Source: Promethearchaeota archaeon
GTDB taxonomy: Archaea; Asgardarchaeota; Lokiarchaeia; Sigyniarchaeales; SOKP01
Assembly (NCBI GenBank): GCA_011364925.1
Contig: RDOA01000012.1
Coordinates: forward strand, 18,254-82,253
Length of the DNA: 64,000 nucleotides
Direction: 5' to 3'
Within the stretch, counting starts at the first letter, position 1. Every line of letters begins with the position of its first letter. A program made the position numbers and the translations under genes. The notes under the pieces are model-generated. The model had not been told where the DNA came from. It was given only the letters and a program-made list of their open reading frames with translations, and did not search any database. This document shows, piece after piece, positions 607-18,559 of the stretch.

Positions 607-1917
607 CTAAATACTAAGTTTAATCTGCCCATAGGTTCCACCTCCCCCGGGAGTGTATTCTATTTTATCTTGCCTTATTGCTTCTATAACAAATCCAACT
701 CTTTCGTCGTATTTTTTGATATCTTCAATTGGAACGTTTAATATAATATCAAATTCTGTTCCTAGTTTTTCAATTATATTATTATATGCGTTCATCACGG
801 TTGTACTTGAAGCACTTTTAATATTTTTAACAGAACGAATGATATCTATTAATGGTACAGCGTTTATATAAGACGGTCGATGTTCGGGGTGAATAGGCAC
901 TCTTGATGTAGAAATCACTTCAATTCTCTCACTTACTCCTAATTTAATCTTAACATTTTTTGTAAATTTTTCCTTGCAAGCAGGACAGGTCATTCTTTCT
1001 TTAGCGACATTTTCGATATATTCTTGTTTAGATTTAATAGGATCGTTTGTAATGATTTTAATAAACTCGTCTGATATTGCGTATTGATTAAAAAGAGAAT
1101 TGCCTTGTTTTGCAGTCTTTTTGAATAATATTCTTCTTCTACATTTATTGCAGAACATATTGTAATATTTTCCTAACTTAGGGTGAAGTCCTACATTTAA
1201 ATTAACTTTACGTCTACTTTTTCCCTCAATCGCTAAAACTACCTCTTCAAAAGAGGGATTTTCCATAGTAAGTCTGTTAAATTCTCTACCTAAGGATCTA
1301 GGACTTTCAGAATGAGCATCACTATTACTTAAGAATGTGATATGTTTAAGACAATCTAACCTATCTGCTAAATCTGTATTAGCGGATAATCCTAACTCTA
1401 AAAAGCTCACTTTTTTTGTAGCATCTTGATAACATTCTTCAAGTGTTTTGAATTTATTTTGACGAAATATAGCTTTAAATGGTGTAAAAGCGTGTGCGGG
1501 TCCAATAATCGCTCCATAATCGGTGATTATATCCACAAGCTCGGCCGGACTTAAGTTTACTCTTGGACGACCTCCCCATTCATCCAAGATATTTTTTGAA
1601 TAAGAACTAATCTTTTTTTGAACATCTCTTACCGAAGAAAAATTGGGAAAGAAAACTACTTGATGAACGCTTTCTTGGTCTTCAATTTCAGTTTGTAAGA
1701 TGAAATATACACCTTTATACGAAAGTGATCCGTCATTTTCCTTTATCAAGTTTTTTTCTAAATATTTTAACCAATTTGGTTGTAATACATCTCCGGTTCC
1801 AAGGATATCAAGTCCTTTTTTCTTACATGTTTCAACCATTGTATCTAAATTTAAATTTTTTGATACTGCTATTGAATGAGGAGAATGGATATGTAAATCA
1901 GAATTGAAAGACTCCAT
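607..1917 (-). CDS. endonuclease Q family / PHP-domain protein with Zn ribbon (TIGR00375-like)
   Basis: DLHIHS, GTGD, PAHAFTP, ELGLSA, NSDAHS, LGREFN, CxxC...CPAC, PGGGGTYG motifs. Confidence 0.85.
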   Translation of the reverse strand: MESFNSDLHIHSPHSIAVSKNLNLDTMVETCKKKGLDILGTGDVLQPNWLKYLEKNLIKENDGSLSYKGVYFILQTEIEDQESVHQVVFFPNFSSVRDVQKKISSYSKNILDEWGGRPRVNLSPAELVDIITDYGAIIGPAHAFTPFKAIFRQNKFKTLEECYQDATKKVSFLELGLSANTDLADRLDCLKHITFLSNSDAHSESPRSLGREFNRLTMENPSFEEVVLAIEGKSRRKVNLNVGLHPKLGKYYNMFCNKCRRRILFKKTAKQGNSLFNQYAISDEFIKIITNDPIKSKQEYIENVAKERMTCPACKEKFTKNVKIKLGVSERIEVISTSRVPIHPEHRPSYINAVPLIDIIRSVKNIKSASSTTVMNAYNNIIEKLGTEFDIILNVPIEDIKKYDERVGFVIEAIRQDKIEYTPGGGGTYGQIKLSI

Positions 1918-1941
1918 CAGTTCATCAAAAAATTCAATCCA

Positions 1942-3015
1942 TTAAATACCATTTGCTTTTAATTTAGACCCTAGCTCAATCCATTCTTTAGCTTTGTCAA
2001 TATTTCCTAACTTCTCATGGCAACGCGCCGCTGATTCCCAAAAATCTACTTCTGAAGGGTCGAGAGAAACAACTTTATCGAAGTGAATCAATGCTTTTTT
2101 ATAATTATTTTTTACATCGCAATATATCTTCCCTAATTTCTTAAGAGCATTTATATTATCTGGATCCATTTTCAGAGTATTTTGATAATAAAAAATAGCC
2201 TTATCGTAATCATGTAACGCGTTATAACTGAATGCTAAATTTTCGTATAGCACCGGATCTTCCTCTTGGAGTTTTAAGGCTTCCTTATAACAGTTTATTG
2301 ATTTTTCATAGTCTTCTTTAAAGGTATAAGAAAGACCAAGATTATTCCAAGCTTCAATGAAGGTAGGGTCGATTTCTGTCGCTTTTTTATACGAATCAAT
2401 AGCTAAATCGTAGTTGTTTGTCTCATACGCAACGTCTCCTAAATCAAACCACAATTCAGCATTATTAGGGTCAAGATCGATGGCTTTTTTATAATACTTT
2501 ATTGCTTCATCATAGTTCTGAGTATCGTAATATATTATGGCAAGATTGTTATGGAGAAGAAGCTCATCCGGATTAATCTTTAAAGCTTTTTTATAGCAAT
2601 TTATAGCTTCTTCATACTGTTCCTTGTCTCTGTAGATTAAAGCAATATTATTCCAAACATCTGTATAGCTTGGTTCGTATTCTAAGGCGATTTTGTAATA
2701 TTTTAATGCATTATCATGATCTTCTAAATCTTCGTATGCAAATCCCATGTTATAGTAAGCAACTGCATCATCAGGGTCTATTTCAATTGCTTTTTGATAG
2801 CATTTTATTGCTTCTTCATATTGGCGTAGCATGCTAAATGAGAGTCCAAGATTATTCCACACTTCTGAAAAATAGGGGTTGATTTCTATAGCCCTTTCAT
2901 AAGCTTCTATTGCTTCCTCAAATGCGTTTTCATCGTAATACGCATCTGCTAAATTGATCCACGCATCAACATCATTAGGATCTAATTCTGCTGACTTTTT
3001 GTATCTCTCAATCAT
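1942..3015 (-). CDS. tetratricopeptide repeat protein
   Basis: about ten 34-aa repeats (WNNLG...YEEAIKCYQKAIEIDP). Confidence 0.95.
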   Translation of the reverse strand: MIERYKKSAELDPNDVDAWINLADAYYDENAFEEAIEAYERAIEINPYFSEVWNNLGLSFSMLRQYEEAIKCYQKAIEIDPDDAVAYYNMGFAYEDLEDHDNALKYYKIALEYEPSYTDVWNNIALIYRDKEQYEEAINCYKKALKINPDELLLHNNLAIIYYDTQNYDEAIKYYKKAIDLDPNNAELWFDLGDVAYETNNYDLAIDSYKKATEIDPTFIEAWNNLGLSYTFKEDYEKSINCYKEALKLQEEDPVLYENLAFSYNALHDYDKAIFYYQNTLKMDPDNINALKKLGKIYCDVKNNYKKALIHFDKVVSLDPSEVDFWESAARCHEKLGNIDKAKEWIELGSKLKANGI

Positions 3016-3086
3016 TTTAAAATCAGATAATCTATAGAAAAATAAAGTTTGATTACTATTATTTTTTTTGGATTTTTAAAATATTT

Positions 3087-4133
3087 TTAATTACTAGCAA
3101 TAACTATCATTTTATCATGAATTTGGTCTGTCAACAATATTCTCAGATGGGGTTCATCAGTTTTAAATCTTACTTCTTCTAACTTACCCTCAACGAGTAC
3201 AGACTCGCCTTCAATTGCCTGTTCACAAAACCTTCCTCGAAAAGAGCTAACTTCACTTATGTTATCTAATTTGATACTTTTTCCAATAATTTTGCTTTCT
3301 AGCACTTTTACACAGCTAATTTCATATGAACAGGGAGTAAAGATTGAATTGGTTGAATCTATTAGATTTGCTTTTACTTTAATCCTTCCTAGATTTTTGA
3401 ATTGATAATCGTAGTATGTTCCCTTCCAGTCATTAGGATCTTTTATATACCTGATAAAGAAATCGATTCCATGGTATTTTCCTTGATGTAACTTCCTTTT
3501 TTCACTCTTTAAAAAACTCTCGAAACTAATGTTAGAACCTCCTACCCTCCATTTATAGTGGTCTTTATATTCAGATAAGTTGTAGGATCTACAATCGTTT
3601 GGAGTGAGAAGAATTTGTTTTAACTTATCTTGAAACTCTAAAATATTATGAGTTCCATATATCATTATATCTATATCAGAATCAGCCAAACCCAATCCAA
3701 TCATTGGTGATCCAGAAATTCCAATTGCATCTTCTGGTATTGATCCGTCTGTAATTAATAATTTACAAAGATTTCTGGAATGAAGCTCCAGTTTTGTTAA
3801 TTCTTTTTTCAAATTAAGCAATTTATAATATTCTTTGGGAGTGTATATTTTCTCTATATCTCCATTTTTTACGCCCTGAACTCTTAAATCAAGTTCCTTT
3901 GAAAAAAAAATAAATTGAGGGTATTTTTCTTCGAGTTTCAAATATCTTTCGTCCAATGAATAGATTTTTCTATATTTTCTGCCTTCCTTTATTCGTTCAC
4001 CATTCTGATCGGGAACAAACCTTAAAAAACAAATTTTGCGATCTCGAGGATGGTGATAACCTTTTATATCAAAAAACAAATGGTCATCTTTGGTTTCGAG
4101 GTAATCCCCTTCAATTCCTTTTGGAATGTTCAT
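3087..4133 (-). CDS. predicted nucleotidyltransferase-domain protein (archaeal COG1665-like)
   Basis: GISGS...SDIDIMIYG pol-beta-type NTase motif; N-terminal KGYHHP...LRFVP; C-terminal OB-like region. Confidence 0.7.
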   Translation of the reverse strand: MNIPKGIEGDYLETKDDHLFFDIKGYHHPRDRKICFLRFVPDQNGERIKEGRKYRKIYSLDERYLKLEEKYPQFIFFSKELDLRVQGVKNGDIEKIYTPKEYYKLLNLKKELTKLELHSRNLCKLLITDGSIPEDAIGISGSPMIGLGLADSDIDIMIYGTHNILEFQDKLKQILLTPNDCRSYNLSEYKDHYKWRVGGSNISFESFLKSEKRKLHQGKYHGIDFFIRYIKDPNDWKGTYYDYQFKNLGRIKVKANLIDSTNSIFTPCSYEISCVKVLESKIIGKSIKLDNISEVSSFRGRFCEQAIEGESVLVEGKLEEVRFKTDEPHLRILLTDQIHDKMIVIASN

Positions 4134-4153: not shown

Positions 4154-5257
4154 TTAATATTTTGAAGGTGTCTTCGATTTTATTTGATACTTGGGAATTT
4201 CTTTTATTTTTTGTAATTCTCTTTCAAACTCTTTTTTCTCTTTAAGAAATCTCTCCTTATCACTATCTAACTTTTGCCTTTCTTTTCTTATTGAAATCTT
4301 CTCATCTTCTATTTTTGATTTTTCTTTTTCTATATTTTTTATGTCATCGTTTAATTTTTTCAATTTCTTTTCTGAATTCTGAATTTTATGTTCTAATGAA
4401 TAATAAGCGTCTTCTGCTTGAGGCACCTTTCTGTCTAATTCTTTCAGTCGAGCTTCTTGCCCTTTTTTCTTACGTTCTAGTTCTCTAACATCATTATCAA
4501 CATTTTCTTTAAATTTTCCTAGTTTTTCTTTCTTTTTCTCAATATCGCGGGCTTTAAGGTTCAAATTTTGTTTCTTGTATCGAACTTTTTCTTTTTCATC
4601 TTTTAACCTTCTTTTTTCATCTTCAATTCGATTTTTTTCATCTGTGATTTCTCTTTTCAAATTATTAATTTCTTTGTTTAAATTATCCCGTTCTCTTGTT
4701 AAGTTTTTAACTTCGTTTCTTAAGTCCATTAAATTGTTTTCTAACTTTTCAATTGTTCTTTCTAATGCGTCTTCTCTCCGTTCCATTCCAGGTAATTTCG
4801 TTTTTATTTCTTTAATTCTTTCTTTTGCTTTTGCTTTTTCTTTTTCTATATTTCTCTTTTCGTTCTCTAGTTCTTCCCTAATGCCATCTAACTTCTCTTG
4901 ATATCGCTCTAAATCAGCAGTTTTCTGATCTAGCTCTCTCTCTTTCGCATGTAGTTCGTTTTTACTACTGTTTATTTCGTTTCTCATTCTATCTAATTCC
5001 AATTTTAAGTCCTCGTATTGCTTTTGAAGTTCTCTGACTTCAAGTTCTTTTTGTTTTCTTTTTTTTTCTAATTCTTCAATATTTTCGTTATATCCGTCAA
5101 TTTTATTGATTACTCGCTCCCATTCATTCTTCTCCTTATTCAATTTAATTCTTTCTTCTTTAATTTTTTTAAGAAGCTTCCCATCAACGCTTTTATCTAA
5201 CTCTTCCTCAGGAGTTTTTTCTCGGATTTGATACTTTGGAATTGGTTTTTCCTTCAT
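4154..5257 (-). CDS. long coiled-coil protein with IPKYQIxxKTP motif at both termini
   Basis: K/E-rich heptads throughout; N-terminal KPIPKYQIREKTP and C-terminal KEIPKYQIKSKTPSKY. Confidence 0.8.
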   Translation of the reverse strand: MKEKPIPKYQIREKTPEEELDKSVDGKLLKKIKEERIKLNKEKNEWERVINKIDGYNENIEELEKKRKQKELEVRELQKQYEDLKLELDRMRNEINSSKNELHAKERELDQKTADLERYQEKLDGIREELENEKRNIEKEKAKAKERIKEIKTKLPGMERREDALERTIEKLENNLMDLRNEVKNLTRERDNLNKEINNLKREITDEKNRIEDEKRRLKDEKEKVRYKKQNLNLKARDIEKKKEKLGKFKENVDNDVRELERKKKGQEARLKELDRKVPQAEDAYYSLEHKIQNSEKKLKKLNDDIKNIEKEKSKIEDEKISIRKERQKLDSDKERFLKEKKEFERELQKIKEIPKYQIKSKTPSKY

Positions 5258-5437
5258 GCCATTTCTTTAACTCATATTACCTAATATTATTAATATATTG
5301 ATTCGAATTCTAAAGTGTTTGTAATTTCTTTTAAAGAGGATTTTTGATTTAGTCAATTTTATTTAAATAGCTTAATTTCCATTATTTTCTTAAATATAAT
5401 TTAAATGTACTTAATCTAAATTCATGGTGTTAATCTA

Positions 5438-5839
5438 ATGGATTTTGACGAGGAATTTGATAAGGAGTTCGACGAAGAATTGGAGGAGGATTTTGACGAA
5501 AACTTAGATGAAGATTTTGACGAACCTACTTCAAAAACTCCTCCTGACGATGTTAAAGTTAAGACTCCAGAACCTCATCTCCCTCCTGAAGGAAAAAAGA
5601 TATCTGTATTTTTTCTTTCTACTATTGGTCCGGGAGAAAAAAAACAAAAATTACTAGTATATACTGGTAATAAAGTTGGAGACATTAAAGATACTGTGGC
5701 AAATTTGTTTGCGCTAGATCCATCCGATTTCCATTTGTCTTCAGGAGGAGTGACAATGGATGAGACATCTTACCTAAGCGATTATAATGTAGATGAAGGA
5801 GATGACATATTATTAATTCCTGCTAGCGTAGCAGGTTGA
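5438..5839 (+). CDS. ubiquitin-like protein with acidic N-terminal extension, ending in an exposed Gly (Ubl-A)
   Basis: beta-grasp pattern (VGDIKDTV...GVTMDETSYLSDYNVDEGDDILLI) ending PASVAG-stop; about 70% identical to the 7692..8024 domain. Confidence 0.85.
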   Translation: MDFDEEFDKEFDEELEEDFDENLDEDFDEPTSKTPPDDVKVKTPEPHLPPEGKKISVFFLSTIGPGEKKQKLLVYTGNKVGDIKDTVANLFALDPSDFHLSSGGVTMDETSYLSDYNVDEGDDILLIPASVAG

Positions 5840-5880
5840 GAACTAAGAAAGATATAAAAATCTTAAATTATTTTTTCATT

Positions 5881-6669
5881 CTATTTTTTTCTCGATGGTA
5901 TTAACGCGATCTCGTCATCGTCGTCAATAGAATAATCCCTTATCTGCTTTGATTCGTCTAACAATATCCCACCGGTGGATAGGAGAAAATCTTCTAAAGC
6001 ATAATCAAATAGAATTCCGACTTGTTCCTTGAGGATATTTACTAATTCTGAAGTTTCAATAACGATTATTTTGGTTTTCTCGCCAGGTTCGACTAATGAT
6101 CTTACATAAACGCGAATCTTATCATCCATTCCAATAGTGGTCAGTGGTGGGTTGTACTGCACTTTTTCATTAGTTCTTTCCTTATATTGCAAGATATCTT
6201 TAATTAACCGTTTTCTTTCGCTAGGTTCAAAATATAGCATTTCTCTGATAAAAAAGATTTTATCCATCTTTGATAACCCTAGCAAATCAATTTTGTCTAA
6301 TTCTTCTCTATTGAACAATGTAAAAATGTAATCGTCGAAGGTCTCAATTTTTTCAAAAGTTTCATCGCTATCTGCATATTGATCTACTAATGGCATAGCT
6401 TCGAAGTAATCTTCGATTAGTTCGCTTGTAGTTCTATGTATTGGATTTAACTTTTTAGCGTATTTATCTTTTTTTATCTTTTTAGCGGGACTACCCGTAG
6501 AAGATACAACGGTATAGATCGTGCCCGTTGACAATACCGCAACGCTCCCAACAGTTAGAAAGAGGAATAGAGGTAAACTTTCTATCTGCATTAAGAAAAA
6601 AATCAAATAGAGTATTGCAAAAACAATGTAAAGAGTTAAAATACTTAGAATTCTAAATTTTTTTTTCAT
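5881..6669 (-). CDS. membrane-anchored protein with C-terminal ubiquitin-like domain lacking terminal Gly
   Basis: two N-terminal hydrophobic helices; C-terminal PGEK...LSTGGILLDESKQIRDYSIDDDDEIALIPSRKK aligns to the two Ubls. Confidence 0.8.
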   Translation of the reverse strand: MKKKFRILSILTLYIVFAILYLIFFLMQIESLPLFLFLTVGSVAVLSTGTIYTVVSSTGSPAKKIKKDKYAKKLNPIHRTTSELIEDYFEAMPLVDQYADSDETFEKIETFDDYIFTLFNREELDKIDLLGLSKMDKIFFIREMLYFEPSERKRLIKDILQYKERTNEKVQYNPPLTTIGMDDKIRVYVRSLVEPGEKTKIIVIETSELVNILKEQVGILFDYALEDFLLSTGGILLDESKQIRDYSIDDDDEIALIPSRKK

Positions 6670-6747
6670 GGTTTTTTGGCGAATCTATTCTCTAAATTTA
6701 TGATTTAAATGGTATCTAATAAATCGCATTGGTATAACTTTGTAATT

Positions 6748-7422
6748 TTATATATCATAAGGAACTGATTTTCTAATATTCTCATATCTCTTGGAGTCTA
6801 ATTTATATAAATCTCTTTTTTTATCTTTTTCAATTGATATTAATTTTAAATTCATTAAAATTTCAAGATATTTTTTAATTGTATTGTAATTACCTTTTAG
6901 GATAGAAGCTATTTCAGTAATTTTCAAAGAATTATCTTCACTCTTTAATAGATTTATAATCTCACGAACGATTTCTTGCTTTAAATAATAATATATCTCG
7001 TCTAAATCTGGATCTGAATCGTAATCAAAAATAATTCTTTGATTCTCTATTTTCTTCGACCGTGTAAATCTGAACTTTTCTAAACATGATAAATGCCATA
7101 ACGCTTGATTACTTCCAATATTTATTGCTTTCATTATTTCATTTACATTGGATGGAGTCTTTCGGATATAATTATAAATTTCATTTCGGATTGGATGTTC
7201 AATAATGTTATTTTTCATTAATCTAGTTCCAGGGATTAGAATTCTTTTTTTAATAAGGTTTTTAATAAAGATTTCGATACTATTTCTGTTCAATTCAGGA
7301 TTAGCTCTTACCCTATTATTGATGAACACCACGATATCTTCGACAGAAAAGAACGGTTTCTTTTTTAAATATTCCTCTATTAGACCACAGACAATAGATT
7401 GAAGGCTATCAGGCTTGCTCAT
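6748..7422 (-). CDS. winged helix-turn-helix transcriptional regulator (tandem wHTH, ArsR-like)
   Basis: IRNEIYNYI...WHLSCLEK and ITEIASIL..NYNTIKKYLEIL HTH motifs; divergent from the Ubl-E1-E2 operon. Confidence 0.75.
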   Translation of the reverse strand: MSKPDSLQSIVCGLIEEYLKKKPFFSVEDIVVFINNRVRANPELNRNSIEIFIKNLIKKRILIPGTRLMKNNIIEHPIRNEIYNYIRKTPSNVNEIMKAINIGSNQALWHLSCLEKFRFTRSKKIENQRIIFDYDSDPDLDEIYYYLKQEIVREIINLLKSEDNSLKITEIASILKGNYNTIKKYLEILMNLKLISIEKDKKRDLYKLDSKRYENIRKSVPYDI

Positions 7423-7691
7423 AAGCTTATTGTTTTAATGTGTTGAATTATACGATTTTTATAATCAAATCTTCTCTCTAAAAGGATATTTTTCAATTTA
7501 TATATATTGATAAACAATCATTTAATTTATAAGTATATTAAACTAGGCATTTTAATCTTAATGAATACATTTTTTACATATAACTTAAAAATCTTCAAAA
7601 TCATTCCAATCGGTTTTTTAACTCAATATTTTCACCATTAATATAAGTCTAAAAAAAAACTTAAACTAAAAAAACCAAGGAAGCGATTTGA

Positions 7692-8024
7692 ATGAGTTTT
7701 GAAGAAGATTTTGATGAGGAATTAGAACCAGTTAAATCTAAAACCCCATCAAGTAAAACACCCTCAACAGGTAAGAAGTTGACTTTATATTTTATGTCAA
7801 CTATTGGTCCTGGTGAAAAGAAGGAGAAGTTAACTGTCAATGATGCAAATCGGGTAAGTGATATTAAACAGACATTAGGAAATCTATTCGGTCTTGATCC
7901 AGATGAATTTCACTTATCATCTGGAGGTGTTACAATGGATGAGAATAGTCAATTAAAAGATTATAATGTCAATGACGGCGACGACATTCTTTTGATTCCA
8001 GCAAGTACTGCGGGATTAAATTAA
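7692..8024 (+). CDS. ubiquitin-like protein precursor with acidic N-terminal tail (Ubl-B)
   Basis: beta-grasp pattern ending IPASTAG-LN; first gene of the Ubl-E1-E2-JAB-RING run. Confidence 0.88.
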   Translation: MSFEEDFDEELEPVKSKTPSSKTPSTGKKLTLYFMSTIGPGEKKEKLTVNDANRVSDIKQTLGNLFGLDPDEFHLSSGGVTMDENSQLKDYNVNDGDDILLIPASTAGLN

Positions 8025-8103: not shown

Positions 8104-9339
8104 ATGGTGATAATATTGCATAAGGATTCAGATTTTTTTGCAAAGGGATTGTCAGAAGAAGAGAGAGACTTATACGATCGTCAATTTCGTTTAGAAGGAT
8201 GGTCCCAAAAATTAGTAAAAAAATCGAGAGTTTTAATCGCGGGAGTAGGAGGGTTAGGATGTGAAATTGCTAAGAATTTAGCTATGTTAGGGGTAGGCCA
8301 TATAGATCTCGTGGATCTAGATATCATCGAACACTCTAACTTAAACCGCCAAGTTCTGTTTGCAGGCGCAAAGCTGGGAGAACCGAAAGCAATTGCGGCT
8401 GCAAAAAAGTTAGCTGAAATTAATCCTAATATTATTGTTAATGGATACCATTCATCGTTAGAACGATTAGAGCCCTCTCTCTACTATAATGCTGATGTTG
8501 TTATAGGGGGACTTGATTCAATGAATGCGAGATTAAATTTAAACGCTCAATGTATTAGATTTAGGAAACCATTAGTAGATGGAGGGGTTTCTGGCTATTA
8601 TGGACATGTATATACAATATTCCCATATCGGAATGCATGTTATGAATGCAATCCGCTGCCAGATGTGGCAAGTGATGAAATGGCAGCTTGTACCGTAGTT
8701 GGTATCCCTCGAAAAAGAATTCATTGCGTTTTTAAAGGAGATATGGCCTTCAAAGAAAAATTTGATAGAGATCCGAATCCTAAAAATGTAGAAGAGATAA
8801 GGTTTATTCAAAAAGTTGCAAATGAACTTGTTACAAAACACAATTTCTTTCCTGAATATACAGAAGATGATATTGTAAAAATTATTGATCGCCATGATCC
8901 AGGAATTATAACAATAAACGCAACAATATCAGCTTTACAATCTCACGAAGCGATTAAAATCCTTCATTGGAAAAACGGTCATAAAGGATTAGGTGAACCA
9001 ATTATAAATTATATGATATTTAATGCTATGACAATGAAATTATACCACATTGAAAAGAAGAGAAATCCAGAATGTTCTCAATGTGGTAAAAATGTGAGAC
9101 GCGTTGTAATTAAAATGAGAGAAAACTCTCCATGCATGAATATAATTAAAATATTACAAAAAAATGGATACAAATTAGAATCGGAATTTGAACCAGTATT
9201 AACTCTTTTGGATTTTAACGATATAATTGTTCTAGATTTAGAGCAAAATCCAATTCAAAATGGTTTGAGGATTTACGAATTTCTCACGGTTGCGGGGTTT
9301 GAAGGAGGAGAAATATACGTAACCTTAAAATTTAAATAA
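8104..9339 (+). CDS. ubiquitin-activating enzyme E1 (ThiF family, UBA3/SAE2-like)
   Basis: YDRQ, GVGGLGCE, D..E.SNLNRQ, CYEC, catalytic ACTVVGIPRKRIHC, CSQC, C-terminal extension. Confidence 0.92.
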   Translation: MVIILHKDSDFFAKGLSEEERDLYDRQFRLEGWSQKLVKKSRVLIAGVGGLGCEIAKNLAMLGVGHIDLVDLDIIEHSNLNRQVLFAGAKLGEPKAIAAAKKLAEINPNIIVNGYHSSLERLEPSLYYNADVVIGGLDSMNARLNLNAQCIRFRKPLVDGGVSGYYGHVYTIFPYRNACYECNPLPDVASDEMAACTVVGIPRKRIHCVFKGDMAFKEKFDRDPNPKNVEEIRFIQKVANELVTKHNFFPEYTEDDIVKIIDRHDPGIITINATISALQSHEAIKILHWKNGHKGLGEPIINYMIFNAMTMKLYHIEKKRNPECSQCGKNVRRVVIKMRENSPCMNIIKILQKNGYKLESEFEPVLTLLDFNDIIVLDLEQNPIQNGLRIYEFLTVAGFEGGEIYVTLKFK

Positions 9340-9405: not shown

Positions 9406-9933
9406 ATGAGTATAAGAAGTAGTCGAGTCTCTCGAGATTTTGCGGGACTTAAAAGATTGCTAAAGGAAGGTACCATCATCCAATTAAAGCCATTTAATCC
9501 AAAAAAAAAGAGTATTGATCACTTAGCTTTAACGGTTAAAGGTCCTAAAGGAACAGCTTACGCAGGAGGATTGTTCAGATTGGAAATGAAGTTTCCTGTT
9601 CAGTACCCTAAACAACCTCCTTTTGTGAGATTGCACACTCCTATTTGGCATCCAAATTTTTGGCCAAAACCTAATGAATATAAAGGACAAAGAAATATTT
9701 GCTTAGCGTTAGTAGATCCGTCTCTAGTGGGGACAAAAGGTGGATGGAGCCCTTCGAAAACAGCTGTTACAGTTGTTCAAGCAATCATTGCTATGCTCAA
9801 CACGCGAGGTAAGTATGTCAATCCAACTGATGTGTTTAATAAAAAAGCAGCGATAGAAATGATAAAGGATCCTAAAATGTTTGAAAAGAAAGTGAAAAGC
9901 TTAACTAAGAAATACGCTAAGGATAAATGGTGA
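9406..9933 (+). CDS. ubiquitin-conjugating enzyme E2
   Basis: GPKGTAYAGGLF, FPVQYPKQPP, IWHPN, ICL (catalytic Cys), WSP. Confidence 0.95.
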   Translation: MSIRSSRVSRDFAGLKRLLKEGTIIQLKPFNPKKKSIDHLALTVKGPKGTAYAGGLFRLEMKFPVQYPKQPPFVRLHTPIWHPNFWPKPNEYKGQRNICLALVDPSLVGTKGGWSPSKTAVTVVQAIIAMLNTRGKYVNPTDVFNKKAAIEMIKDPKMFEKKVKSLTKKYAKDKW

Positions 9934-9940
9934 TTATGGA

Positions 9941-10750
9941 ATGGGCATTGACGAAAATAATTCTAGTTCCATTAGAGATGCGATAAAACAGAGAATTAAA
10001 GAGAAAATTAAAAAAGAACTCCTCGAAGAAGTGTACACTGAATTACAATTAGAAGAATTACAAGAAGAAATAACCGCTGAATTTATCGATGTAAAACCGA
10101 TAAATCACTCTAAATATATCAAAGCTAACCTTGAACCAATTCCAATGGAACCCGTAGTAGAAACTGTGGCTAGAAGCGATAAAATTGAAGCGACTATAAC
10201 AATCACGATAAAAGCAGTTCTTAAAATCGCCAGTCATTCTCTCAAATATGCGCATTCAAAAATACCTAGAGAACAATGGGTAGAAGTAATTGGCTTACTC
10301 GCTGGAAAGTATAATGAGTCTAACGGAATATTACATATTGAAGATGCTTATCCAATGGGGCATGGTACAGCGGTGTATGCTGAAATAAAGGATTATAAGA
10401 ATTATGTTAGAGCTTTTAAAGATATCAAGAAAAAAAAGGGCTTATTCATAGCAGGATGGTATCATAGCCACCCAAGTTATAGTTGCTTTATGTCAAGGGA
10501 AGATTTAAGCACACAGGCTAGATATCAAAAGCTTTGGGACAAAGCCGTTGCACTCGTAATCGATCCATTTTTAATTAACGGAAGATCAGTTGGATTTGAA
10601 ATTTACCGCGCAAATTTTAAAACAAAGAAATGGTTTTCAGTGCCTTTTGAAATTAAAGGGCATTTAGATATTCGCATGTTACCGGAGATTATAGAATTCA
10701 TGAATCCGATAATAGAAGGGAAACCAGCCTATTTAGAATATGATGAGTAA
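9941..10750 (+). CDS. JAB1/MPN+ (JAMM) metalloprotease, CSN5/Rpn11-like
   Basis: EVIGLL and GWYHSHPSYSCFMSREDLSTQ, ALVIDP. Confidence 0.93.
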   Translation: MGIDENNSSSIRDAIKQRIKEKIKKELLEEVYTELQLEELQEEITAEFIDVKPINHSKYIKANLEPIPMEPVVETVARSDKIEATITITIKAVLKIASHSLKYAHSKIPREQWVEVIGLLAGKYNESNGILHIEDAYPMGHGTAVYAEIKDYKNYVRAFKDIKKKKGLFIAGWYHSHPSYSCFMSREDLSTQARYQKLWDKAVALVIDPFLINGRSVGFEIYRANFKTKKWFSVPFEIKGHLDIRMLPEIIEFMNPIIEGKPAYLEYDE

Positions 10751-10782: not shown

Positions 10783-11904
10783 ATGGTTAAAAATAAAACC
10801 TTAACAATCATTTTTGCTATTTTTTTAGTTATTGGGGTAATTCATGGTTTAATCTCTCTTTCTTTTTTAAATTTTGCAACCTGGGTTTTAATAGGATTAT
10901 GGGTAATATTTACAATAAAATTATATGTAAACATAAAACGGCACCGTGAGTTTAATTCGCCACATAATACTGCATTTTTTGTCATTATTCCGTTAACTAT
11001 TGGAATATTTTACTCAATTTGGGGCTATTATACAGGAATTCTAGGAGAAAATTTACTCGGTGGAGTATATTTTAGTCTATGGAGCTTAATTTTTGCTTTT
11101 CCTTTTGTGATCTATGGATCCTACTCATTATATCGATGTTTCAAGAAATACAATGTAATATATTTTGGGACCAAAGCTGTGAAAGCCCGAAAATTGGGAT
11201 ACATTCTTTCTTTTTCAGTTCTTATTTTTATTTTGATTTATTGGATAAGTTTTTATAGCGCAATTGAGAGTTTTCCGTTGGATTTGAATCTCTTAATACT
11301 ATTTATAGCTACAATTTTAGTCGTAATAATATTTGGTTTTACTAATTCTCGTCCATCATTACCTACTTTAACACGCGATTATATTGCAAATCGTACTAGA
11401 ACAATAAACAATTTAACTACGCCTACAACACAACGACAGCGTTTACGGACTACAAGAGTAACCGCTCCTACTCCATCTACTAGAGCAACAACACAAACTT
11501 CAAGATCGAGAACTCATTCGTCAAGAATAACCCCTACATCACATAGACAAACTACAAGAACTAAAACAACAAAAGTTACACACACAACTACTGTTAAACC
11601 TACTTCCAAAATTCGGAATATTAATAATTATAAACCCAGAGCATCGTATTTGTCATTAGAAGATTTTAAGTGTATCTTTTGTTTTAAGCTACCAAAACTT
11701 CCTGATGACAAGGGTCGAGGAGTGGTTATATGTCCAAATTGCAGATATCCCTCCCATGCGGATGAATTCAAAGATTGGATGCGCACTTCAAATCTTTGTT
11801 CGCGTTGTAGTGCTCCTATTCCTACCAGCTTTAGGCGTAATCCCAGTATAGTAAGTGTAAAGAACTACATTATTGCTTATAAACAATTGTTAAAACGCAA
11901 ATAA
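10783..11904 (+). CDS. multi-pass membrane protein with C-terminal RING-variant domain (putative E3 ligase)
   Basis: about 6 hydrophobic helices, Thr/Arg/Ser-rich linker, C-x2-C-x16-C-x2-C-x4-H-x2-E-x3-W-x6-C-x2-C. Confidence 0.75.
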   Translation: MVKNKTLTIIFAIFLVIGVIHGLISLSFLNFATWVLIGLWVIFTIKLYVNIKRHREFNSPHNTAFFVIIPLTIGIFYSIWGYYTGILGENLLGGVYFSLWSLIFAFPFVIYGSYSLYRCFKKYNVIYFGTKAVKARKLGYILSFSVLIFILIYWISFYSAIESFPLDLNLLILFIATILVVIIFGFTNSRPSLPTLTRDYIANRTRTINNLTTPTTQRQRLRTTRVTAPTPSTRATTQTSRSRTHSSRITPTSHRQTTRTKTTKVTHTTTVKPTSKIRNINNYKPRASYLSLEDFKCIFCFKLPKLPDDKGRGVVICPNCRYPSHADEFKDWMRTSNLCSRCSAPIPTSFRRNPSIVSVKNYIIAYKQLLKRK

Positions 11905-12012: not shown

Positions 12013-12573
12013 ATGAATAAAGAAAGCGTACAAGAACTAATCACACAACTTATTAAGGAGATTGAAGGGAATGAGGGAGAATTACGCCCTGCCACGAAAG
12101 AAACTCCAAGACGAGTAGCCAATGCGTATAGCGAAATATTTGATGGCTATCGAACAGACATAGACAAGGAAGTGAAAGTCTTTAAAGCAAACTATAGCGA
12201 GATTATTGTATCTAAAGATATTAAGTTTTATAGCATGTGCGAGCACCATATTCTCCCTTTCTACGGTACTGTTGACATTATATATATGCCAGGCGAGTAT
12301 CTTTTAGGAATTTCAAAATTCGCACGAGTAGTTAATTATTTTTCTCATAGATTAAATGTTCAAGAAAAGATGACAGATGACATTGCAAATTATTTAATGA
12401 CCTGTTCGTTAAAACCAAGAGGAGTGATGGTTATAGTCAAAGGTACTCATTTATGCGAGATAATGAGGGGTGTAAAGCAGTCTAATCCTTTAATAATAAC
12501 ATCTGCTATAAAGGGAATATTTAAAACTAACCTTGCTACGAGATCAGAAGCGTTGGAACTATTAAATTTATAA
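12013..12573 (+). CDS. folE: GTP cyclohydrolase I (type IA)
   Basis: ETPRRVA, SMCEHHILPF, GISKFAR, VQE, HLCEIMRGV. Confidence 0.95.
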   Translation: MNKESVQELITQLIKEIEGNEGELRPATKETPRRVANAYSEIFDGYRTDIDKEVKVFKANYSEIIVSKDIKFYSMCEHHILPFYGTVDIIYMPGEYLLGISKFARVVNYFSHRLNVQEKMTDDIANYLMTCSLKPRGVMVIVKGTHLCEIMRGVKQSNPLIITSAIKGIFKTNLATRSEALELLNL

Positions 12574-12640
12574 CCCTAAACATATTATTACTGACAATAG
12601 TTATTTTTTTATCAAAATCATAAAAATTTTTGTGTGGGTT

Positions 12641-13813
12641 ATGTCCAAAACCTTCATACATAGTAATTACGGTTTGATTGGAGTCGGCTTAGAATTTAAA
12701 AAGAACATCACAGTCGAAGTTAATGAAGATGGAATAATTAATAATCTTTCTTATGATGATGTAAGAGAAGATATCAATATTTCGTCGAAACATCCTACTT
12801 TTTTATTAATACCTGGTTTGATTAATTCTCATATTCATATTTGTGACAGTTTTGCTAAAGAACAAGGTTTTAATAAAAATTTAATAGAAGTTGTCGCCCC
12901 TCCTAATGGGATTAAACATAAATTGCTAGAAAATACTTCAGAAGCGATCAAAGTACAAGGAATAAAAGAAGCAGTTAAGGATATGTTAGCTAATGGCATA
13001 ACTCTGTTCGTAGATTTTAGAGAAAATGGAATAATTGGCGTTAACATATTAAAAGATGCTTTAGAAAATTCACCAATTAATTGCATTATTTTAGGAAGAT
13101 TCAAAAATCTTGAAGAAGCAGAGGTTATTATAAAAAAAGCTAATGGAATTGGATTTGCAAGTTATGATCAGCTTTCTCAAGATCATAAAAATATAATAAT
13201 TGGATTAAAAAATAAATATAGAAGCAAGATTATTGCTTGTCACGATGCAGAGTTATCACGGAACGAGTTACTATTGAAGGATATAATAAGAGATGGAATA
13301 ATTGATGTTGTTATTCACGGGACGCACTATACGATGGAAGATTTAAAAAAGATTAAGGAAAACCATATAATGTTAGTTTTATGCCCAAGATGTAATGGTT
13401 ATTTTGGGTGTGGTTTTCCACCTATTAAGGAATTATGCTATCTAGAAATCCCTGTTAGTCTTGGAACAGATAATGTAATGGCAAATAACATTGATTTATT
13501 TGAAGAGATGCGTTATTTATATAGGATTTTCCGTGTATTGGCTGCTAATAAAAGTAAGAATATTTTAACATCAAAAGAGCTGTTAAAAATGGTAACTATT
13601 AATGCTGCAAAAAACTTTGGTCTGTTAGAGAAATTTGGTTCTATTTCAGTGGGAAAATATGCGGATTTTTCTCTATTAAGCCTTTCTGATTCAAATTATT
13701 ATTCACATGAGTTTGATAGTGAAAATATTTATAACATAATTGTTCAAAGAACAAGGGCAGAGAATATAAAAAGGACTTATATTAAAGGTGAGGTAGTATC
13801 TGAAAGAAAGTGA
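12641..13813 (+). CDS. metal-dependent amidohydrolase / deaminase family protein
   Basis: PGLINSHIHICD, CPR.N, LGTDN, T.NAAK, GSISVGKYAD; ATG at 12641 preferred over GTG 12632. Confidence 0.85.
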   Translation: MSKTFIHSNYGLIGVGLEFKKNITVEVNEDGIINNLSYDDVREDINISSKHPTFLLIPGLINSHIHICDSFAKEQGFNKNLIEVVAPPNGIKHKLLENTSEAIKVQGIKEAVKDMLANGITLFVDFRENGIIGVNILKDALENSPINCIILGRFKNLEEAEVIIKKANGIGFASYDQLSQDHKNIIIGLKNKYRSKIIACHDAELSRNELLLKDIIRDGIIDVVIHGTHYTMEDLKKIKENHIMLVLCPRCNGYFGCGFPPIKELCYLEIPVSLGTDNVMANNIDLFEEMRYLYRIFRVLAANKSKNILTSKELLKMVTINAAKNFGLLEKFGSISVGKYADFSLLSLSDSNYYSHEFDSENIYNIIVQRTRAENIKRTYIKGEVVSERK

Positions 13814-14471
13814 ACATCCTTATGTGATTTTAAGTGCTGCTATGACAATTGATGGAAAAATTGCATCAAAAAATGGAGATCCAGAAATTTCTGATGAAGA
13901 GGATTGGAAATCTGTTCATAAACTTCGAACAGAGGTGGATGCGATTATGGTTGGTAAAGGATCCATACTGAAAGATAATCCCAAATTACATATAAAATAT
14001 TACGATCATAACGGGTACTATCGTATTGTATTGGATAGCAATCTTTCCATTCCAATTGATTCGAATATTATTACCTATGAACCCGATACTTATCCAACTA
14101 TTATAGTAACAACCGAAAACGCTCCTGTTGATCGAATTAGGGAATTTGAAGCAAAAAATGTAATTATTATTAAGTCTGGAAGTGGGAATGAAGTTGATAT
14201 TGTTAAATTGATGCCCATTTTATACGGAAAAGGCATAAAGAGGATCCTTTTAGAAGGTGGGGCCAGATTAAATTGGAGTTTTATCAAAAATCATTTAGTA
14301 GACGAAATTAGAATCACAATAGGACCCTGGATGGTAGGGGGTAAGGATGCCTTGAGTTTAGTGGAAGGAGAGGGTTTCGCAAAAATGTGTGAAAGCCCAA
14401 GATATTGCTTATCAAATGTGAAGAAGAACAATAACTATATAACTCTTTATTATAAGAAAGAAAAACCATGA
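13800..14471 (+). CDS. arfC: 2,5-diamino-6-ribosylamino-4(3H)-pyrimidinone 5'-phosphate reductase (RibD C-terminal family)
   Basis: HPYVILSAAMTIDGKIA, HKLR..DAIMVG, LLEGGA; start placed at CTG 13800 behind GGTGAGG (ORF track begins at GTG 13824). Confidence 0.85.
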   Translation: MKESEHPYVILSAAMTIDGKIASKNGDPEISDEEDWKSVHKLRTEVDAIMVGKGSILKDNPKLHIKYYDHNGYYRIVLDSNLSIPIDSNIITYEPDTYPTIIVTTENAPVDRIREFEAKNVIIIKSGSGNEVDIVKLMPILYGKGIKRILLEGGARLNWSFIKNHLVDEIRITIGPWMVGGKDALSLVEGEGFAKMCESPRYCLSNVKKNNNYITLYYKKEKP

Positions 14472-15595
14472 AAACCACTAAAGAAATAGAACAATTGGAA
14501 AAGATACCAATAAAAGCGCTGAAAGAAAAAATTAAAAGTATAAGAGAAGAACTTCCTAAAGAAGAACAGAATATTGTTACTTTTTCTAAGAACTTTACAC
14601 TTTCTCTTTCAAACTATTGTCAAAATCAATGTGGATACTGTTTCTATAACCAGCATGTATCTAAAGAGATTCTAGAACAGTATATTGCACTAATTGAAGA
14701 AAATAAAATTAATGATTTAATCCAAGCAGCAATAAAATTTGGATGCACAGAAGCTTTACTAATGTCTGGTGAATCTCCTGATAAGTTCGAAGTAGTTCAA
14801 AAAGAATTGGAAAAAAGAAACTATAGCAATTTCAACCAATTTGTGAAAAGATTAAGCGAAAAGTTGTTAGAATTCAATCTTTTACCCCATACAAATATAG
14901 GTGCGCTCTCATTCGATGAATTAAAATATTTAAAGGATACAAATGCTAGTATGGGTTTAATGATTGAGAGTACCTGTGAAACTCTTTCCAAACCTGGTGG
15001 TGTTCATGAAAATTCACCAAATAAAACGCCAGAAACTAGAATTAAACACATTATAGACGCGGGAAAGTTAAAGATTCCCTTTACTACAGGCTTATTATTA
15101 GGAATTGGTGAGAGATTTCAAGATCGCATAAAGGATTTGTACTTAATCAAAGAACTTCATCAAAAATATGGTCACATCCAAGAAGTAATAATACAAAATT
15201 TTACAGAAAAATCGAGGATTCCCTATCATCCGAAAAAACCAATAAATATAGAAGAAACTCTCAAAACTGCGGGTGTTGCAAAATTAATATTTGAAAACGA
15301 TATAGCGATTCAAGTTCCTCCTAATTTAATTCAAAATTACGAAAAGGAAGCTTTAGAAATGGGAATTGATGATTTTGGAGGCATATCTCCATTTACTATA
15401 GATTATATTAACCCCCACCACGCTTGGCCAAAAATACCACTCTTAGAAAAGTTATGCATGAGTTTTGGATATGAACTTAAGGAAAGGCTTCCTATATATA
15501 AGAAATTTATAGATAAAAACGGATTTTGTTCTGAAATTATTAAAAAAACGATAAAAAGGATTGATCTGAATGTTAGAAGCGAAAAAGATTCTTAG
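14468..15595 (+). CDS. cofG: FO synthase subunit CofG (radical SAM)
   Basis: VTFSKN, CQNQCGYC, ASMGLMIE, IPFTTGLLLGIGE, HIQEVIIQNF, IQVPPNL, DDFGGISP. Confidence 0.92.
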   Translation: MKTTKEIEQLEKIPIKALKEKIKSIREELPKEEQNIVTFSKNFTLSLSNYCQNQCGYCFYNQHVSKEILEQYIALIEENKINDLIQAAIKFGCTEALLMSGESPDKFEVVQKELEKRNYSNFNQFVKRLSEKLLEFNLLPHTNIGALSFDELKYLKDTNASMGLMIESTCETLSKPGGVHENSPNKTPETRIKHIIDAGKLKIPFTTGLLLGIGERFQDRIKDLYLIKELHQKYGHIQEVIIQNFTEKSRIPYHPKKPINIEETLKTAGVAKLIFENDIAIQVPPNLIQNYEKEALEMGIDDFGGISPFTIDYINPHHAWPKIPLLEKLCMSFGYELKERLPIYKKFIDKNGFCSEIIKKTIKRIDLNVRSEKDS

Positions 15596-16670
15596 AAAAG
15601 CTGAAGATTCAGTTGAGATTAGCCCGGATGAAGCTTTAATCCTATTAAAAATCACGGGTAAAGATTTCACAGCTTTACAACAGACTGCTGATCAGATTTG
15701 TTTTGAGAAGAAGAATAATCTCGTAAGTTTTATCATAAATCGAAATATAAATTTTACAAATGTCTGTTATCAAGGATGTAAATTCTGCTCGTTTTCTGTT
15801 TCAAATAAAAATAAAGACAGTTTTTTAAAAACTATTGAAGAAATAAGAGAGGATGTTACTGAAGCTAAGAACGCAGAATGCACTGAAGTATGCATCCAAG
15901 GAGGGATTAATCCAGAATTAGATTTCGACTATTATTTAGAGATTTTGAAAATAGTAAAGGAGATTGATTCAAATATCCATACTCACGCTTTTTCTCCTCA
16001 AGAAGTGTTCTATATGTCAAAATTATACGGCTCATCGATTTATGATGTGTTAAAGGAGTTAAAAAAAGCAGGTTTAGATTCTATGCCAGGAACAGCAGCA
16101 GAAATTTTAGTAGATGATATCAGAAAAGTTATTTGTCCAAATAAAATTACCACTTCTCAATGGATTGATGTGATAAAATCAGCACATGAATTAGGAATCC
16201 CCACTACTTCGACTATGATGTATGGTCACATTGAAGATTTAAAGGACAGAATAGAACACCTCGAGATTTTAAGGAATATACAGAAAGAAACTTCCGGGTT
16301 CACCGAATTTGTCCCTCTACCCTTTGTTAAAGAAAATCCTCTTTTATCTAAATTGACAGATTTCCCTCTAAAACCTAGCTATGGAATGGCAGATTTAAAA
16401 TTGTTTGCGGTAGCAAGAATTTTCCTCAACAATTACATTGATAATATTCAATGTTCTTGGGTAAAGTTGGGCCCAAAATTCGCTCAAGTTTCTCTATATT
16501 ACGGAGTAAACGACTTTTCTGGTACGTTAATGGAAGAGAACATTTCAAAAAGCGCAGGAGCCGAATTTGGAGAATATTTAGCTCCGGAAGAGATGATCTC
16601 TATCATTAAAGCTGCCGGCAAGAAACCTGTGCAGAGGGATACGCTCTATAAATTATTAAAATTCTACTGA
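15570..16670 (+). CDS. cofH: FO synthase subunit CofH (radical SAM)
   Basis: NRNINFTNVCYQGCKFC, SMPGTAAEIL, TMMYGHIE, NIQCSWVKLG, GTLMEENIS; adjacent to cofG. Confidence 0.92.
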   Translation: MLEAKKILRKAEDSVEISPDEALILLKITGKDFTALQQTADQICFEKKNNLVSFIINRNINFTNVCYQGCKFCSFSVSNKNKDSFLKTIEEIREDVTEAKNAECTEVCIQGGINPELDFDYYLEILKIVKEIDSNIHTHAFSPQEVFYMSKLYGSSIYDVLKELKKAGLDSMPGTAAEILVDDIRKVICPNKITTSQWIDVIKSAHELGIPTTSTMMYGHIEDLKDRIEHLEILRNIQKETSGFTEFVPLPFVKENPLLSKLTDFPLKPSYGMADLKLFAVARIFLNNYIDNIQCSWVKLGPKFAQVSLYYGVNDFSGTLMEENISKSAGAEFGEYLAPEEMISIIKAAGKKPVQRDTLYKLLKFY

Positions 16671-16681
16671 TTATTAAAACT

Positions 16682-18559
16682 CTAACGATTCCTTGTATCT
16701 TGAAGAAAATTTAAAATGTAGCGCTGAGCTATCAAATCTGAACTAATCTTGCCCAAAACCTTACCCTCTTGAACAACGGGCATAGCTGAGATCTGATATT
16801 GTTCGAATTCCCTTACGATATCTAAAATATTGAAATCTGGAGCGGCGGTGACTACTTTTTTTGTCATAATTTTAGTGACAATTCCATCACAAAATCCTTC
16901 CGCGGAAGCCTTTGTTATATCCCAATCTGTAACCACACCAACTAATTTATCATCTGAGATGACAGCAATTATCCCACTATTATTATCTATCATGGATTTA
17001 GCTGCATCTTGAATTGTACTACTTGAATCTATCATTGGTATGGTAACCATTATATCCTTAACTGTAAGTTCACTTTCTTTAGCGTTAAGTCGTTGAAGAC
17101 TTATTCGCTCAGCAGCTTGAGACGGTAAAATGTCTTGGTGTGTAGTTAAAATATCAATTAATTCAATCATATTATTACGAATTACATTTTCGCGATACTC
17201 TACACCGGCTTCTAGGCGGTTTTTCGAGAGTTTTCTGAATTTGGCAGAATTATTTTGTAGCCATCTTTCCACAGCTTCCTTATTTCCAAGAATCTCTGGC
17301 GGAAATTGAACTTCCTCTGGCGATTTAACAATGTGTTCTTGAGCAGCAAAAATTACTCCTCCAGAATTAACCAAATAATCGTTGGCTATCATTACTCCCT
17401 TTTCACGATAGACTATCTGTTCCATTCGTGTTCTAGCAGCTTTTCTGTTTGGATCTGGAGAATAAGTATTTGCTCCTTCTATGATAACCTTCCAATTGCC
17501 CATATGCTCAACTAGCATGGATGCATTATCTGAGGGCCTTACTCCTAAATAATTAAATATCGGGGCTGCAGGTACAAAACAAAAAGCATTTTCACGTAGT
17601 AGATCATTTGCATTTGTAGAGAACTTTGTTGGATGTTTATATCCTTCAGCGATTATGTTATTTTCAAAGTAGGTTTGCGTTGCCATTTTTTTATTCTCCC
17701 AAAACTCAAATAATTCTTCAGTTGGAAGACCTGCAAAATTATAAAGATACCCTTCTAGGTCGCTTATACCTATTACTCTGGCGTTAGGAATTCGCTCTTT
17801 AAGTATTCGTGTAGCGTGAGCACCAACCGCACCAAATCCTTGTATCAAAATAGTTAATTCTTGATTAGCTGGAATTTCTAAATTTTCGAATTGTGGAAGT
17901 ACTCTCATTCGGGGAAGTATTTCCAGTAGAGTTTGTAATGCTATGATAACCCCTCCAGCAGCAGCTCCGAGTTCATCGATTCTATTTCCACCCATATCTG
18001 CGGGTTTAGAAACAGCGCTATCAAGACCGTTTTCCATCGCTATTAATTTCATATCGGCATCATTGGTACCAACATCAGGTCCAGGTACGTAAATTTCTTT
18101 ATATCTGCGAATTAATCGCGCAAATCCTCTTACTATCTCTTCATGAATATCATCAGGTAAATTTCTTTCTGCCACTATCCCCGATTTTCCACCCCCATAA
18201 GGAAGATTCGCAGCCGCATTCTTTAATGTCATTCCCCTTGCTAGATTTTGGATATCTGAAGGTTTAATATCGGGGAGCATTCTTATACCCCCCATTGACG
18301 GAGAACCCATACTTAGGTTATCTACCACAAGGTATCCTCCAATTTCTAATTCGGAATTCTCGTCCCAAACGCAAGCTACAATTTGCGGTCCCAATTCATC
18401 CCTTACGATCCCTAATCGAGATAATAAATGTTCGTCAAGGTTGCTGAACTCTAAATAACATTTTCCATCTTCTTTTTTAAGACGTGTTAACAACATCGCT
18501 TCAGGAAGGTGAGATTTAAGAAAAATTTCCATTTCTTTAGGTATCATGATTGATCTCAC
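16682..18559 (-). CDS. Glu/Leu/Phe/Val dehydrogenase fused to C-terminal CBS pair
   Basis: GGIRM, MTLKNAAANLPYGGGKSGI, PGPDVGT, IQGFGAVG, EGAN, NSGGVI; VKDIM...VGVVTDWDI CBS repeats. Confidence 0.88.
   Translation of the reverse strand: MRSIMIPKEMEIFLKSHLPEAMLLTRLKKEDGKCYLEFSNLDEHLLSRLGIVRDELGPQIVACVWDENSELEIGGYLVVDNLSMGSPSMGGIRMLPDIKPSDIQNLARGMTLKNAAANLPYGGGKSGIVAERNLPDDIHEEIVRGFARLIRRYKEIYVPGPDVGTNDADMKLIAMENGLDSAVSKPADMGGNRIDELGAAAGGVIIALQTLLEILPRMRVLPQFENLEIPANQELTILIQGFGAVGAHATRILKERIPNARVIGISDLEGYLYNFAGLPTEELFEFWENKKMATQTYFENNIIAEGYKHPTKFSTNANDLLRENAFCFVPAAPIFNYLGVRPSDNASMLVEHMGNWKVIIEGANTYSPDPNRKAARTRMEQIVYREKGVMIANDYLVNSGGVIFAAQEHIVKSPEEVQFPPEILGNKEAVERWLQNNSAKFRKLSKNRLEAGVEYRENVIRNNMIELIDILTTHQDILPSQAAERISLQRLNAKESELTVKDIMVTIPMIDSSSTIQDAAKSMIDNNSGIIAVISDDKLVGVVTDWDITKASAEGFCDGIVTKIMTKKVVTAAPDFNILDIVREFEQYQISAMPVVQEGKVLGKISSDLIAQRYILNFLQDTRNR

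Follow-up and report, generated by a model that had tools for sequence, protein, structure and literature searches.

A ubiquitin-like (Ubl) conjugation operon and its neighboring genes were analyzed in a 64,000-nucleotide stretch of DNA from a Promethearchaeota archaeon of the Lokiarchaeia (contig RDOA01000012.1 of assembly GCA_011364925.1, forward-strand positions 18,254 to 82,253), which is called the window and whose positions are used throughout. Two modifiers, Ubl-A and Ubl-B, and a coiled-coil protein encoded beside them share a lysine-centered motif. The conserved unit of this motif is [I/V/P]-x-x-K-x-P, in which the Lys and the Pro are nearly fixed and the Thr that often stands between them is not. 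We interpret the motif as the acceptor-lysine consensus of the Asgard Ubl cascade, used both for chains and for substrates and probably read by the E2, and we give this interpretation a probability of about 60%.

Conservation of the K-x-P motif

The initial annotation of this DNA pointed to the tripeptide KTP, twice in each of Ubl-A, Ubl-B and the coiled-coil protein, and all six copies are present at the places described. Ubl-B (7692..8024, plus strand) consists of an acidic tail, a beta-grasp core and a Gly108 followed by a two-residue extension; its disordered tail holds two motifs in tandem (7731..7763), centered on K17 (7740) and K22 (7755). Ubl-A (5438..5839, plus strand) has an acidic disordered tail with motifs around K33 (5534; motif at 5525..5542) and K42 (5561; motif at 5552..5569) and a beta-grasp core, and it ends at Gly133 without an extension. 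The coiled-coil protein, which is the candidate substrate, has 367 residues and is encoded on the minus strand (4154..5257), divergent from Ubl-A. Its KTP copies lie in the segments I11-P16 with K14 (5210..5227, Lys codon 5218-5216) and I359-P364 with K362 (4166..4183, Lys codon 4174-4172), near the two ends of the protein. Two copies beyond those annotated lie at internal proline breaks, namely a hinge motif at I151-P156 with K154-L-P156 (4790..4807) and a weaker one at L274-P279 with K277-V-P279 (4421..4438). The protein (4154-5257) also has a longer repeated cap at both ends, with I-P-K-Y-Q-I ahead of the motif. The hexamer KSKTPS is, as annotated, identical in Ubl-B and the C-terminal tail of the coiled coil; it is written with different codons in the two genes, so a recent copy at the DNA level is ruled out.

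Conservation in orthologs had been proposed as a check on the motif, and the motif withstood it. The Ubl family was present in 123 of the 301 Asgard genomes searched, including members named Heimdallarchaeota, and the Ubl tails of 11 Asgard families have kept the motif, as have the two ends of the coiled coil. Across 311 Ubl tails, K-x-P occurred 605 times and R-x-P five times, with at least one copy in 310 tails and two copies in 266. For example, K17 and P19 of Ubl-B are present in all 189 sequences compared and K22 in 187, in contrast to K15, K28 and K89, which change frequently, Arg included. Among the 76 Lys columns of 80 coiled-coil orthologs only K14 and K362 are at 100%, in proteins of 33-79% identity, and Arg is accepted in 66 of the 76. 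The N-terminal motif of the coiled coil has its Lys in 79/79 sequences, its Pro in 79/79 and its Thr in 73/79; the C-terminal motif has Lys in 79/79 and Pro in 78/79, and the neighboring K360 is Arg in nine sequences. At the first hinge the Lys is kept in 71 of 75 sequences with no Arg, the Pro in 70 of 75, and the middle residue is I or L; at the second hinge the Lys is kept in 69 of 77 with three Arg, and the Pro in 70. The annotation took the KTP Lys to be the conjugation site. A modified Lys is indeed favored, because Arg hardly ever replaces it and neighboring Lys residues change freely to Arg; conjugation itself is the part that we infer. The coiled-coil orthologs vary from about 280 to 570 residues, internal segments having apparently been lost or gained.

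The Thr did not hold as a part of the motif. The middle residue may be T, V, I, S, K, A, L, H and others, including Y, F and R, and I, V or P predominate at position -3; for these reasons the consensus is written as [I/V/P]-x-x-K-x-P. This variation bears on an alternative raised in the annotation, that T-P is a proline-directed phosphosite controlling the Ubls and their partner. Thr is the commonest middle residue in the Ubl tails (490 of 605 copies), and at T18 of Ubl-B it is found in 188 of 189 sequences. However, the position is often taken by residues that cannot be phosphorylated, as at Ubl-B position 23 (V in 41 and I in 14 of the 189 sequences, alongside Thr in 128), at the first hinge of the coiled coil and in the Lys/Pro-rich partner proteins of Heimdallarchaeia discussed below (I 46 versus T 12). 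In addition, the Lys is the fixed residue and no kinase recurs in the loci of the 11 families. Since V, I, K, A, L, Y, F, R or H can stand in its place, Thr is dispensable and a phosphosite is very improbable; T-P phosphorylation could be a secondary switch on some copies.

The motif might also be a compositional by-product of linkers rich in Lys, Thr and Pro, or of local duplication without a shared function. KTP is common, and tandem copies do arise by local duplication. The proteome-wide enrichment for which the annotation had suggested looking was not seen, with 189 copies of KTP observed against 199 expected from dipeptide frequencies, and the broader motif (76 copies versus 46-72 in shuffles) was counted as not enriched. 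At least two KTP copies occur in 10 of about 3,460 open reading frames, and three of those ten are Ubl-A, Ubl-B and the coiled coil. Shuffling each protein separately gave P = 0.00015, 0.0008 and 0.001 for at least two copies in these three neighbors; the P values are post hoc, and the conservation in orthologs is the real support. The by-product explanation is already largely refuted by the invariance of the motif over families and in unrelated proteins, by its fixed spacing, by the different codons and by the excess of K-x-P far above K-P or K-x-x-P in the Lys/Pro-rich partners. We consider it extremely improbable, and even jointly with explanations that were not considered it is left a very small share. 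Without enrichment in the proteome, the motif would mark a few dedicated partners and not many substrates, and no further substrates can be named. The E1, E2, JAB, RING and HTH proteins have no conserved motif of the tail type.

The coiled coil, the E2 and the Ubl are jointly missing from the near-complete genomes G080, G175, G164, G205, G032 and G025, and near-complete genomes without the Ubl are also without the operon-type E2 and without a full-length coiled-coil match. The discordant near-complete genomes that were examined proved to be cases of contig ends or a split gene; G178 and G214 lay outside that check. Near-complete genomes without the operon still have an E2 that scores in the same range. 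Several genomes of the genus have additional Ubl-B genes that stand alone, apart from the operon, and still encode an intact tail motif (L061-L066). One contig titled 'Nanopelagicaceae bacterium' (L157) has an operon-type E2 at 91% identity with coordinates as in contig C176 of genome G011, and is probably a mislabelled Asgard bin.

Partner proteins, Ubl fusions and precursors

Three Heimdallarchaeia families (f9, f18 and f26) have no coiled coil at the locus and encode, in or beside the operon, a Lys/Pro-rich protein of 210-250 residues. This partner contains 11-15 copies of K-x-P, clustered at both ends in f9, and five-residue K-x-P repeats were recorded at L118:6929-7648, L116:5195-5854, L137:3024-3680, L138:3343-3993 and L144:5296-6042. 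A blastp comparison of the Lys/Pro-rich proteins with the coiled coil gave no similarity at E <= 0.01, and the two that were scanned had no Pfam match. In ten of them K-x-P was found 128 times and R-x-P six times; in the f9 partners the numbers were 80 and 0, where 18 were expected, and the preference for Lys over Arg was significant with one protein per family (p = 0.003). A conserved, apparently multi-pass membrane protein of 180-197 residues, assigned to no known family, is encoded immediately behind the RING gene in four of the Asgard families (L116:4598-5176, L136:3421-3966, L138:2759-3337 and L122:3168-3743) and had no tblastn match in the genome of this window. A Heimdallarchaeia neighbor of about 190 residues was considered as a modifying enzyme and rejected, since it looks like a multi-pass membrane protein and has neither a Pfam match nor the motif.

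The composition of these partners brings in another explanation, in which the motif Lys is acetylated or methylated by an unlinked enzyme that regulates the Ubl and its partner. Histone-tail and H1-like sequences resemble such Lys/Pro-rich proteins, which could alternatively be H1-like nucleic-acid binders, and GCN5 (G-K-x-P) and histone H3 K36 provide known examples of K-x-P contexts. The strict preference for Lys over Arg is explained equally well by acetylation or methylation. However, only E1, E2, JAB, RING and Ubl recur in the loci of all 11 families and no transferase is conserved near the operon, so that E1, E2, RING and JAB are the only Lys-directed enzymes that travel with the motif. 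The lack of proteome enrichment also speaks against a modification of this kind, which we judge improbable.

The distribution of the motif among Ubl proteins suggests that it tracks conjugatable C-termini, conjugatability being read from the terminal Gly. Some Ubls with a terminal Gly motif follow an N-terminal roadblock, VWA/CDC48N or Cys-motif domain in a fusion protein; in 11 of 14 such proteins, by inspection, K-x-P lies just before the core. The window itself provides an internal negative control, a membrane-anchored protein (5881..6669, minus strand) whose C-terminal Ubl domain lacks both the terminal Gly and K-x-P; K-x-P precedes the core in one of 43 orthologs of this paralog. Proteins in which the Ubl is joined to a HerA-like ATPase, a CDC48N/VWA protein or a roadblock domain, in many cases with the Gly motif at the end, were recorded at L123:1910-3718, L124:9572-11314, L057:9691-11448, L059:2225-3964 and L067:5583-6506. 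The HerA and VWA fusions are encoded beside a coiled-coil gene, and the fusions may be conjugated as whole proteins. All 15 aligned members of the Ubl family share the ending S-x-A-G with its single Gly, and almost all of the 311 Ubls have P-x-S-x-A-G. What follows the Gly is free to vary, as in processed modifiers. Processing at the Gly is also supported by head-to-tail poly-Ubl precursors in which each unit ends in the single-Gly motif (P0141, L236:59-1177, three units; P0142, L238:205-957, two units).

These observations also bear on non-covalent docking, in which K-x-P would bind a pocket on the E2, the RING protein, JAB, the E1 or another reader, the Ubl tails and the partner would be recruited by it or would compete for it, and the Lys would not be the site of linkage. 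A hydrophobic residue at -3 and a Pro at +2, in disordered and multi-copy segments, are typical of short linear motifs that work by avidity, and the coiled coil has a conserved cap longer than the motif (P7, K8, I11). However, charge-based sites usually tolerate Arg and the motif Lys position does not, the AlphaFold2 model of Ubl-B does not dock the tail on the core, and the motif tracks conjugatable C-termini. We regard docking as unlikely; it keeps a real share because Lys-specific pockets exist and because a rod capped alike at its two ends would make a suitable tether.

The enzymes of the operon and the proposed cascade

Ubl-B is the first gene of the operon, followed on the plus strand by the E1 (8104..9339), the E2 (9406..9933), a JAB/MPN+ protease (9941..10750) and a membrane protein (10783..11904). 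The catalytic motifs, as seen in sequence and alignment, are intact in the E1 (canonical type; Cys196, from alignment to SAE2), in the E2 (HPN and Cys99) and in the protease (JAMM motif from His175). The membrane protein has a C-terminal divergent RING-like finger, recognized by its Cys/His pattern, and is a putative E3; its RING Pfam matches were weak, below the cut-off and in one ortholog, and its gene is present in the loci of the 11 families. The E1 is a single 411-residue chain for which SAE2 (130 bits) ties with UBA1 (129.9), and UBA3 also matches. The best sequence matches of the E2 were Ubc15, UBE2R and UBE2L3 and its fold matches UBE2K, UBE2D and UBE2T (Z 19-20); Ubc9 was not among the top E2 matches listed, nor UFM1 among those of the Ubl, which does not exclude either. 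The AlphaFold2 model of Ubl-B consists of a beta-grasp core and a disordered tail (predicted local distance difference test, pLDDT, under 50 for residues 5-24) that is not docked on its own core. Its best Foldseek match was Caldiarchaeum ubiquitin (E 1.4e-7, 22% identity), with ISG15 and ubiquitin also among the best, and the top 50 fold matches listed comprise ubiquitin, ISG15, NEDD8 and other UBL domains.

From the sequences we infer a cascade of processing, conjugation and chain formation with the E2 as the reader of the motif. The JAB protease would expose the terminal Gly of the Ubl, the E1 would activate the trimmed Ubl, and the E2, aided by the membrane RING protein, would transfer it to the motif Lys. 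Motifs in the disordered tail of the Ubl itself would give rise to chains, branched if both Lys residues are used, and the motif-bearing partner encoded with them (the coiled coil in Lokiarchaeia, the Lys/Pro-rich disordered protein in Heimdallarchaeia) would be a dedicated multi-site substrate. Reading by the E2 is the likelier sub-case of this acceptor model, by analogy with Ubc9, which reads the +2 residue through Ser89 and Thr91, just before the catalytic Cys (bioRxiv 10.64898/2026.09.10.750468). The Ser89/Thr91 segment corresponds to the site of an invariant insertion in the operon E2. There, between the invariant H82-P83-N84 and Cys99, seven residues are inserted relative to canonical E2s, and W86, P89, E91, R96 and N97 are invariant in orthologs of 56-89% overall identity. 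This loop is a plausible Pro-reading surface and the probable site at which the +2 Pro is recognized, much as Ubc9 uses the corresponding region for the +2 Glu. A complex prediction of the E2 with residues 336-367 of the coiled coil (score 0.15, mark 0.32) gave no answer and weighs neither way.

An acceptor site is the simplest explanation for an Arg-intolerant Lys in disordered segments of a modifier and of two unrelated partners, accompanied by a full Lys-conjugation cascade. Several points count against it. First, the Lys-over-Arg pattern is equally produced by a Lys-specific binding pocket or by another Lys modification. Secondly, a putative RING E3 is present, and the choice of Lys is usually loose in RING-based cascades; in the Caldiarchaeum cascade several Lys residues are modified, with no stated consensus (PMC5654768). 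Third, the genome encodes a second E2 (G000 contig C41, 1-498, minus strand), in which the same place holds an insertion that differs in sequence, so having an insertion there is not unique to the operon E2. Fourth, HerA-Ubl fusions have no motif before the core, no partner was identified at the two f32 loci, and the partners of f18 and f26, taken by themselves, do not reach significance (p = 0.11 and 0.21). Lastly, the counts given above are drawn from related sequences and therefore overstate independence, and the motif itself can act as the anchor when tandem copies are aligned. A more far-reaching scheme, in which an ancient modifier pathway of Loki- and Heimdallarchaeia, distinct from ubiquitin, SUMO and UFM1, combines an E2-read K-x-P code and branched tail chains with a decorated membrane rod or scaffold and with Ubl-fused HerA, VWA and roadblock proteins as cargo, is tentative and in our view rather doubtful; under this scheme, SUMO-style conjugation logic directed by a consensus would be older than eukaryotes or would have evolved twice.

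Other genes surround the system. A winged-helix regulator is encoded between the membrane-anchored Ubl protein and Ubl-B (6748..7422, minus strand). Upstream of the coiled coil (607-4133) are a nucleotidyltransferase-like gene, a TPR-like repeat protein and a 436-residue PHP-like gene, the TPR and PHP labels having been assigned by eye; these genes are syntenic with the coiled coil inside the family and not outside. The genes at 12013-16670 were assigned by eye as GTP cyclohydrolase I, an amidohydrolase, a RibD-like reductase and a CofG/CofH-like radical SAM pair, and are not conserved with the operon.

Relation to known modifier systems

The comparison with SUMO2/3 made in the annotation stands as an analogy and not as family membership. 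SUMO2/3 Lys11 and Smt3 Lys15 build chains (PMC2064386). Both systems have a Lys-centered motif, with conservation at +2 and a hydrophobic residue further upstream, in the disordered N-terminal tail of the modifier (here pLDDT under 50, with K17 in 189/189) and also in substrates, which in the Asgard case are putative. In addition, SAE2 is a joint-best match of the Asgard E1. However, the +2 residue is Pro in the Asgard motif and Glu in SUMO, and the hydrophobic residue is at -3 and not -1. The hydrophobic-K-x-E/D consensus is absent, and the inverted form (D-x-K followed by a hydrophobic residue) occurs only in Ubl-A of this genome and is not conserved. The Asgard Ubl has a single terminal Gly where SUMO has di-glycine. 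The operon protease is JAB/MPN+ in all 11 families and not ULP/SENP (this comparison is confined to the genes of the operon), a putative membrane RING-like E3 is present in the operon, and the Ubl and the E2 score closer to ubiquitin-type proteins. Use of the consensus is proven for SUMO, whereas for the Asgard Ubl it is predicted. The Asgard system is SUMO-like in its apparent logic and, to all appearance, outside the SUMO and UFM1 families.

Judged by its gene set, the operon fits the archaeal E1/E2/RING/JAMM type that was reconstituted from Caldiarchaeum. The Caldiarchaeum subterraneum operon (Ub, E1, E2, small RING, Rpn11) has the same enzyme set in one operon and a propeptide after the Gly. 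The features of this type were found here as well: a beta-grasp modifier with a C-terminal Gly, linked to an E1 Cys, an E2 with HPN and Cys, and a JAMM protease. Caldiarchaeum ubiquitin has a di-Gly end and is modified at K4, K53 and K68 (PMC5654768). The Asgard Ubl differs in its acidic tail with a repeated motif, its co-encoded partner and its putative membrane E3. The ESCRT-linked Asgard ubiquitin, in the accessible part of its description (Hatano et al. 2022, PMC9192718), is a ubiquitin-fold modifier with E1, E2 and E3 homologues, and that part mentions no tail motif or substrate. No ESCRT gene, in contrast, recurs in the K-x-P Ubl loci of the 11 families.

UFM1 resembles the Asgard Ubl in having a single C-terminal Gly with a short extension, a sequence feature from which cleavage is presumed. 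The I-P-x4-G spacing of UFM1 is also similar to that of the Asgard Ubl. However, the Asgard E2 has HPN, which UFC1-type enzymes lack, and the E1 is canonical and not UBA5-type. The Ufm1 profile PF03671 matched 0 of 15 Ubl members at E <= 1 and nothing in six genomes, nor in the genome of this window, and UFM1 was not in the top 50 fold matches. Identity with UFM1 is thus not supported. Asgard 'Ufm1 homologues' have been described in another study (PMC12962969).

No published description of the K-x-P motif was found in a literature search that was thin on subscription papers. In the reconstituted archaeal ubiquitin-type cascade the physiological substrates were unknown, and Rad50 was borrowed from Sulfolobus (PMC5654768). 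For the Loki- and Heimdallarchaeia Ubl system, the present analysis puts forward a candidate natural substrate together with its candidate residues and a chain linkage. The parts are small, apparently soluble or truncatable, and encoded in a single operon, so that the origin of sequence-directed acceptor selection could be tested in vitro. If the acceptor-lysine interpretation is true, neither a natural target nor a code for attachment would have been proposed earlier for this archaeal tagging system.

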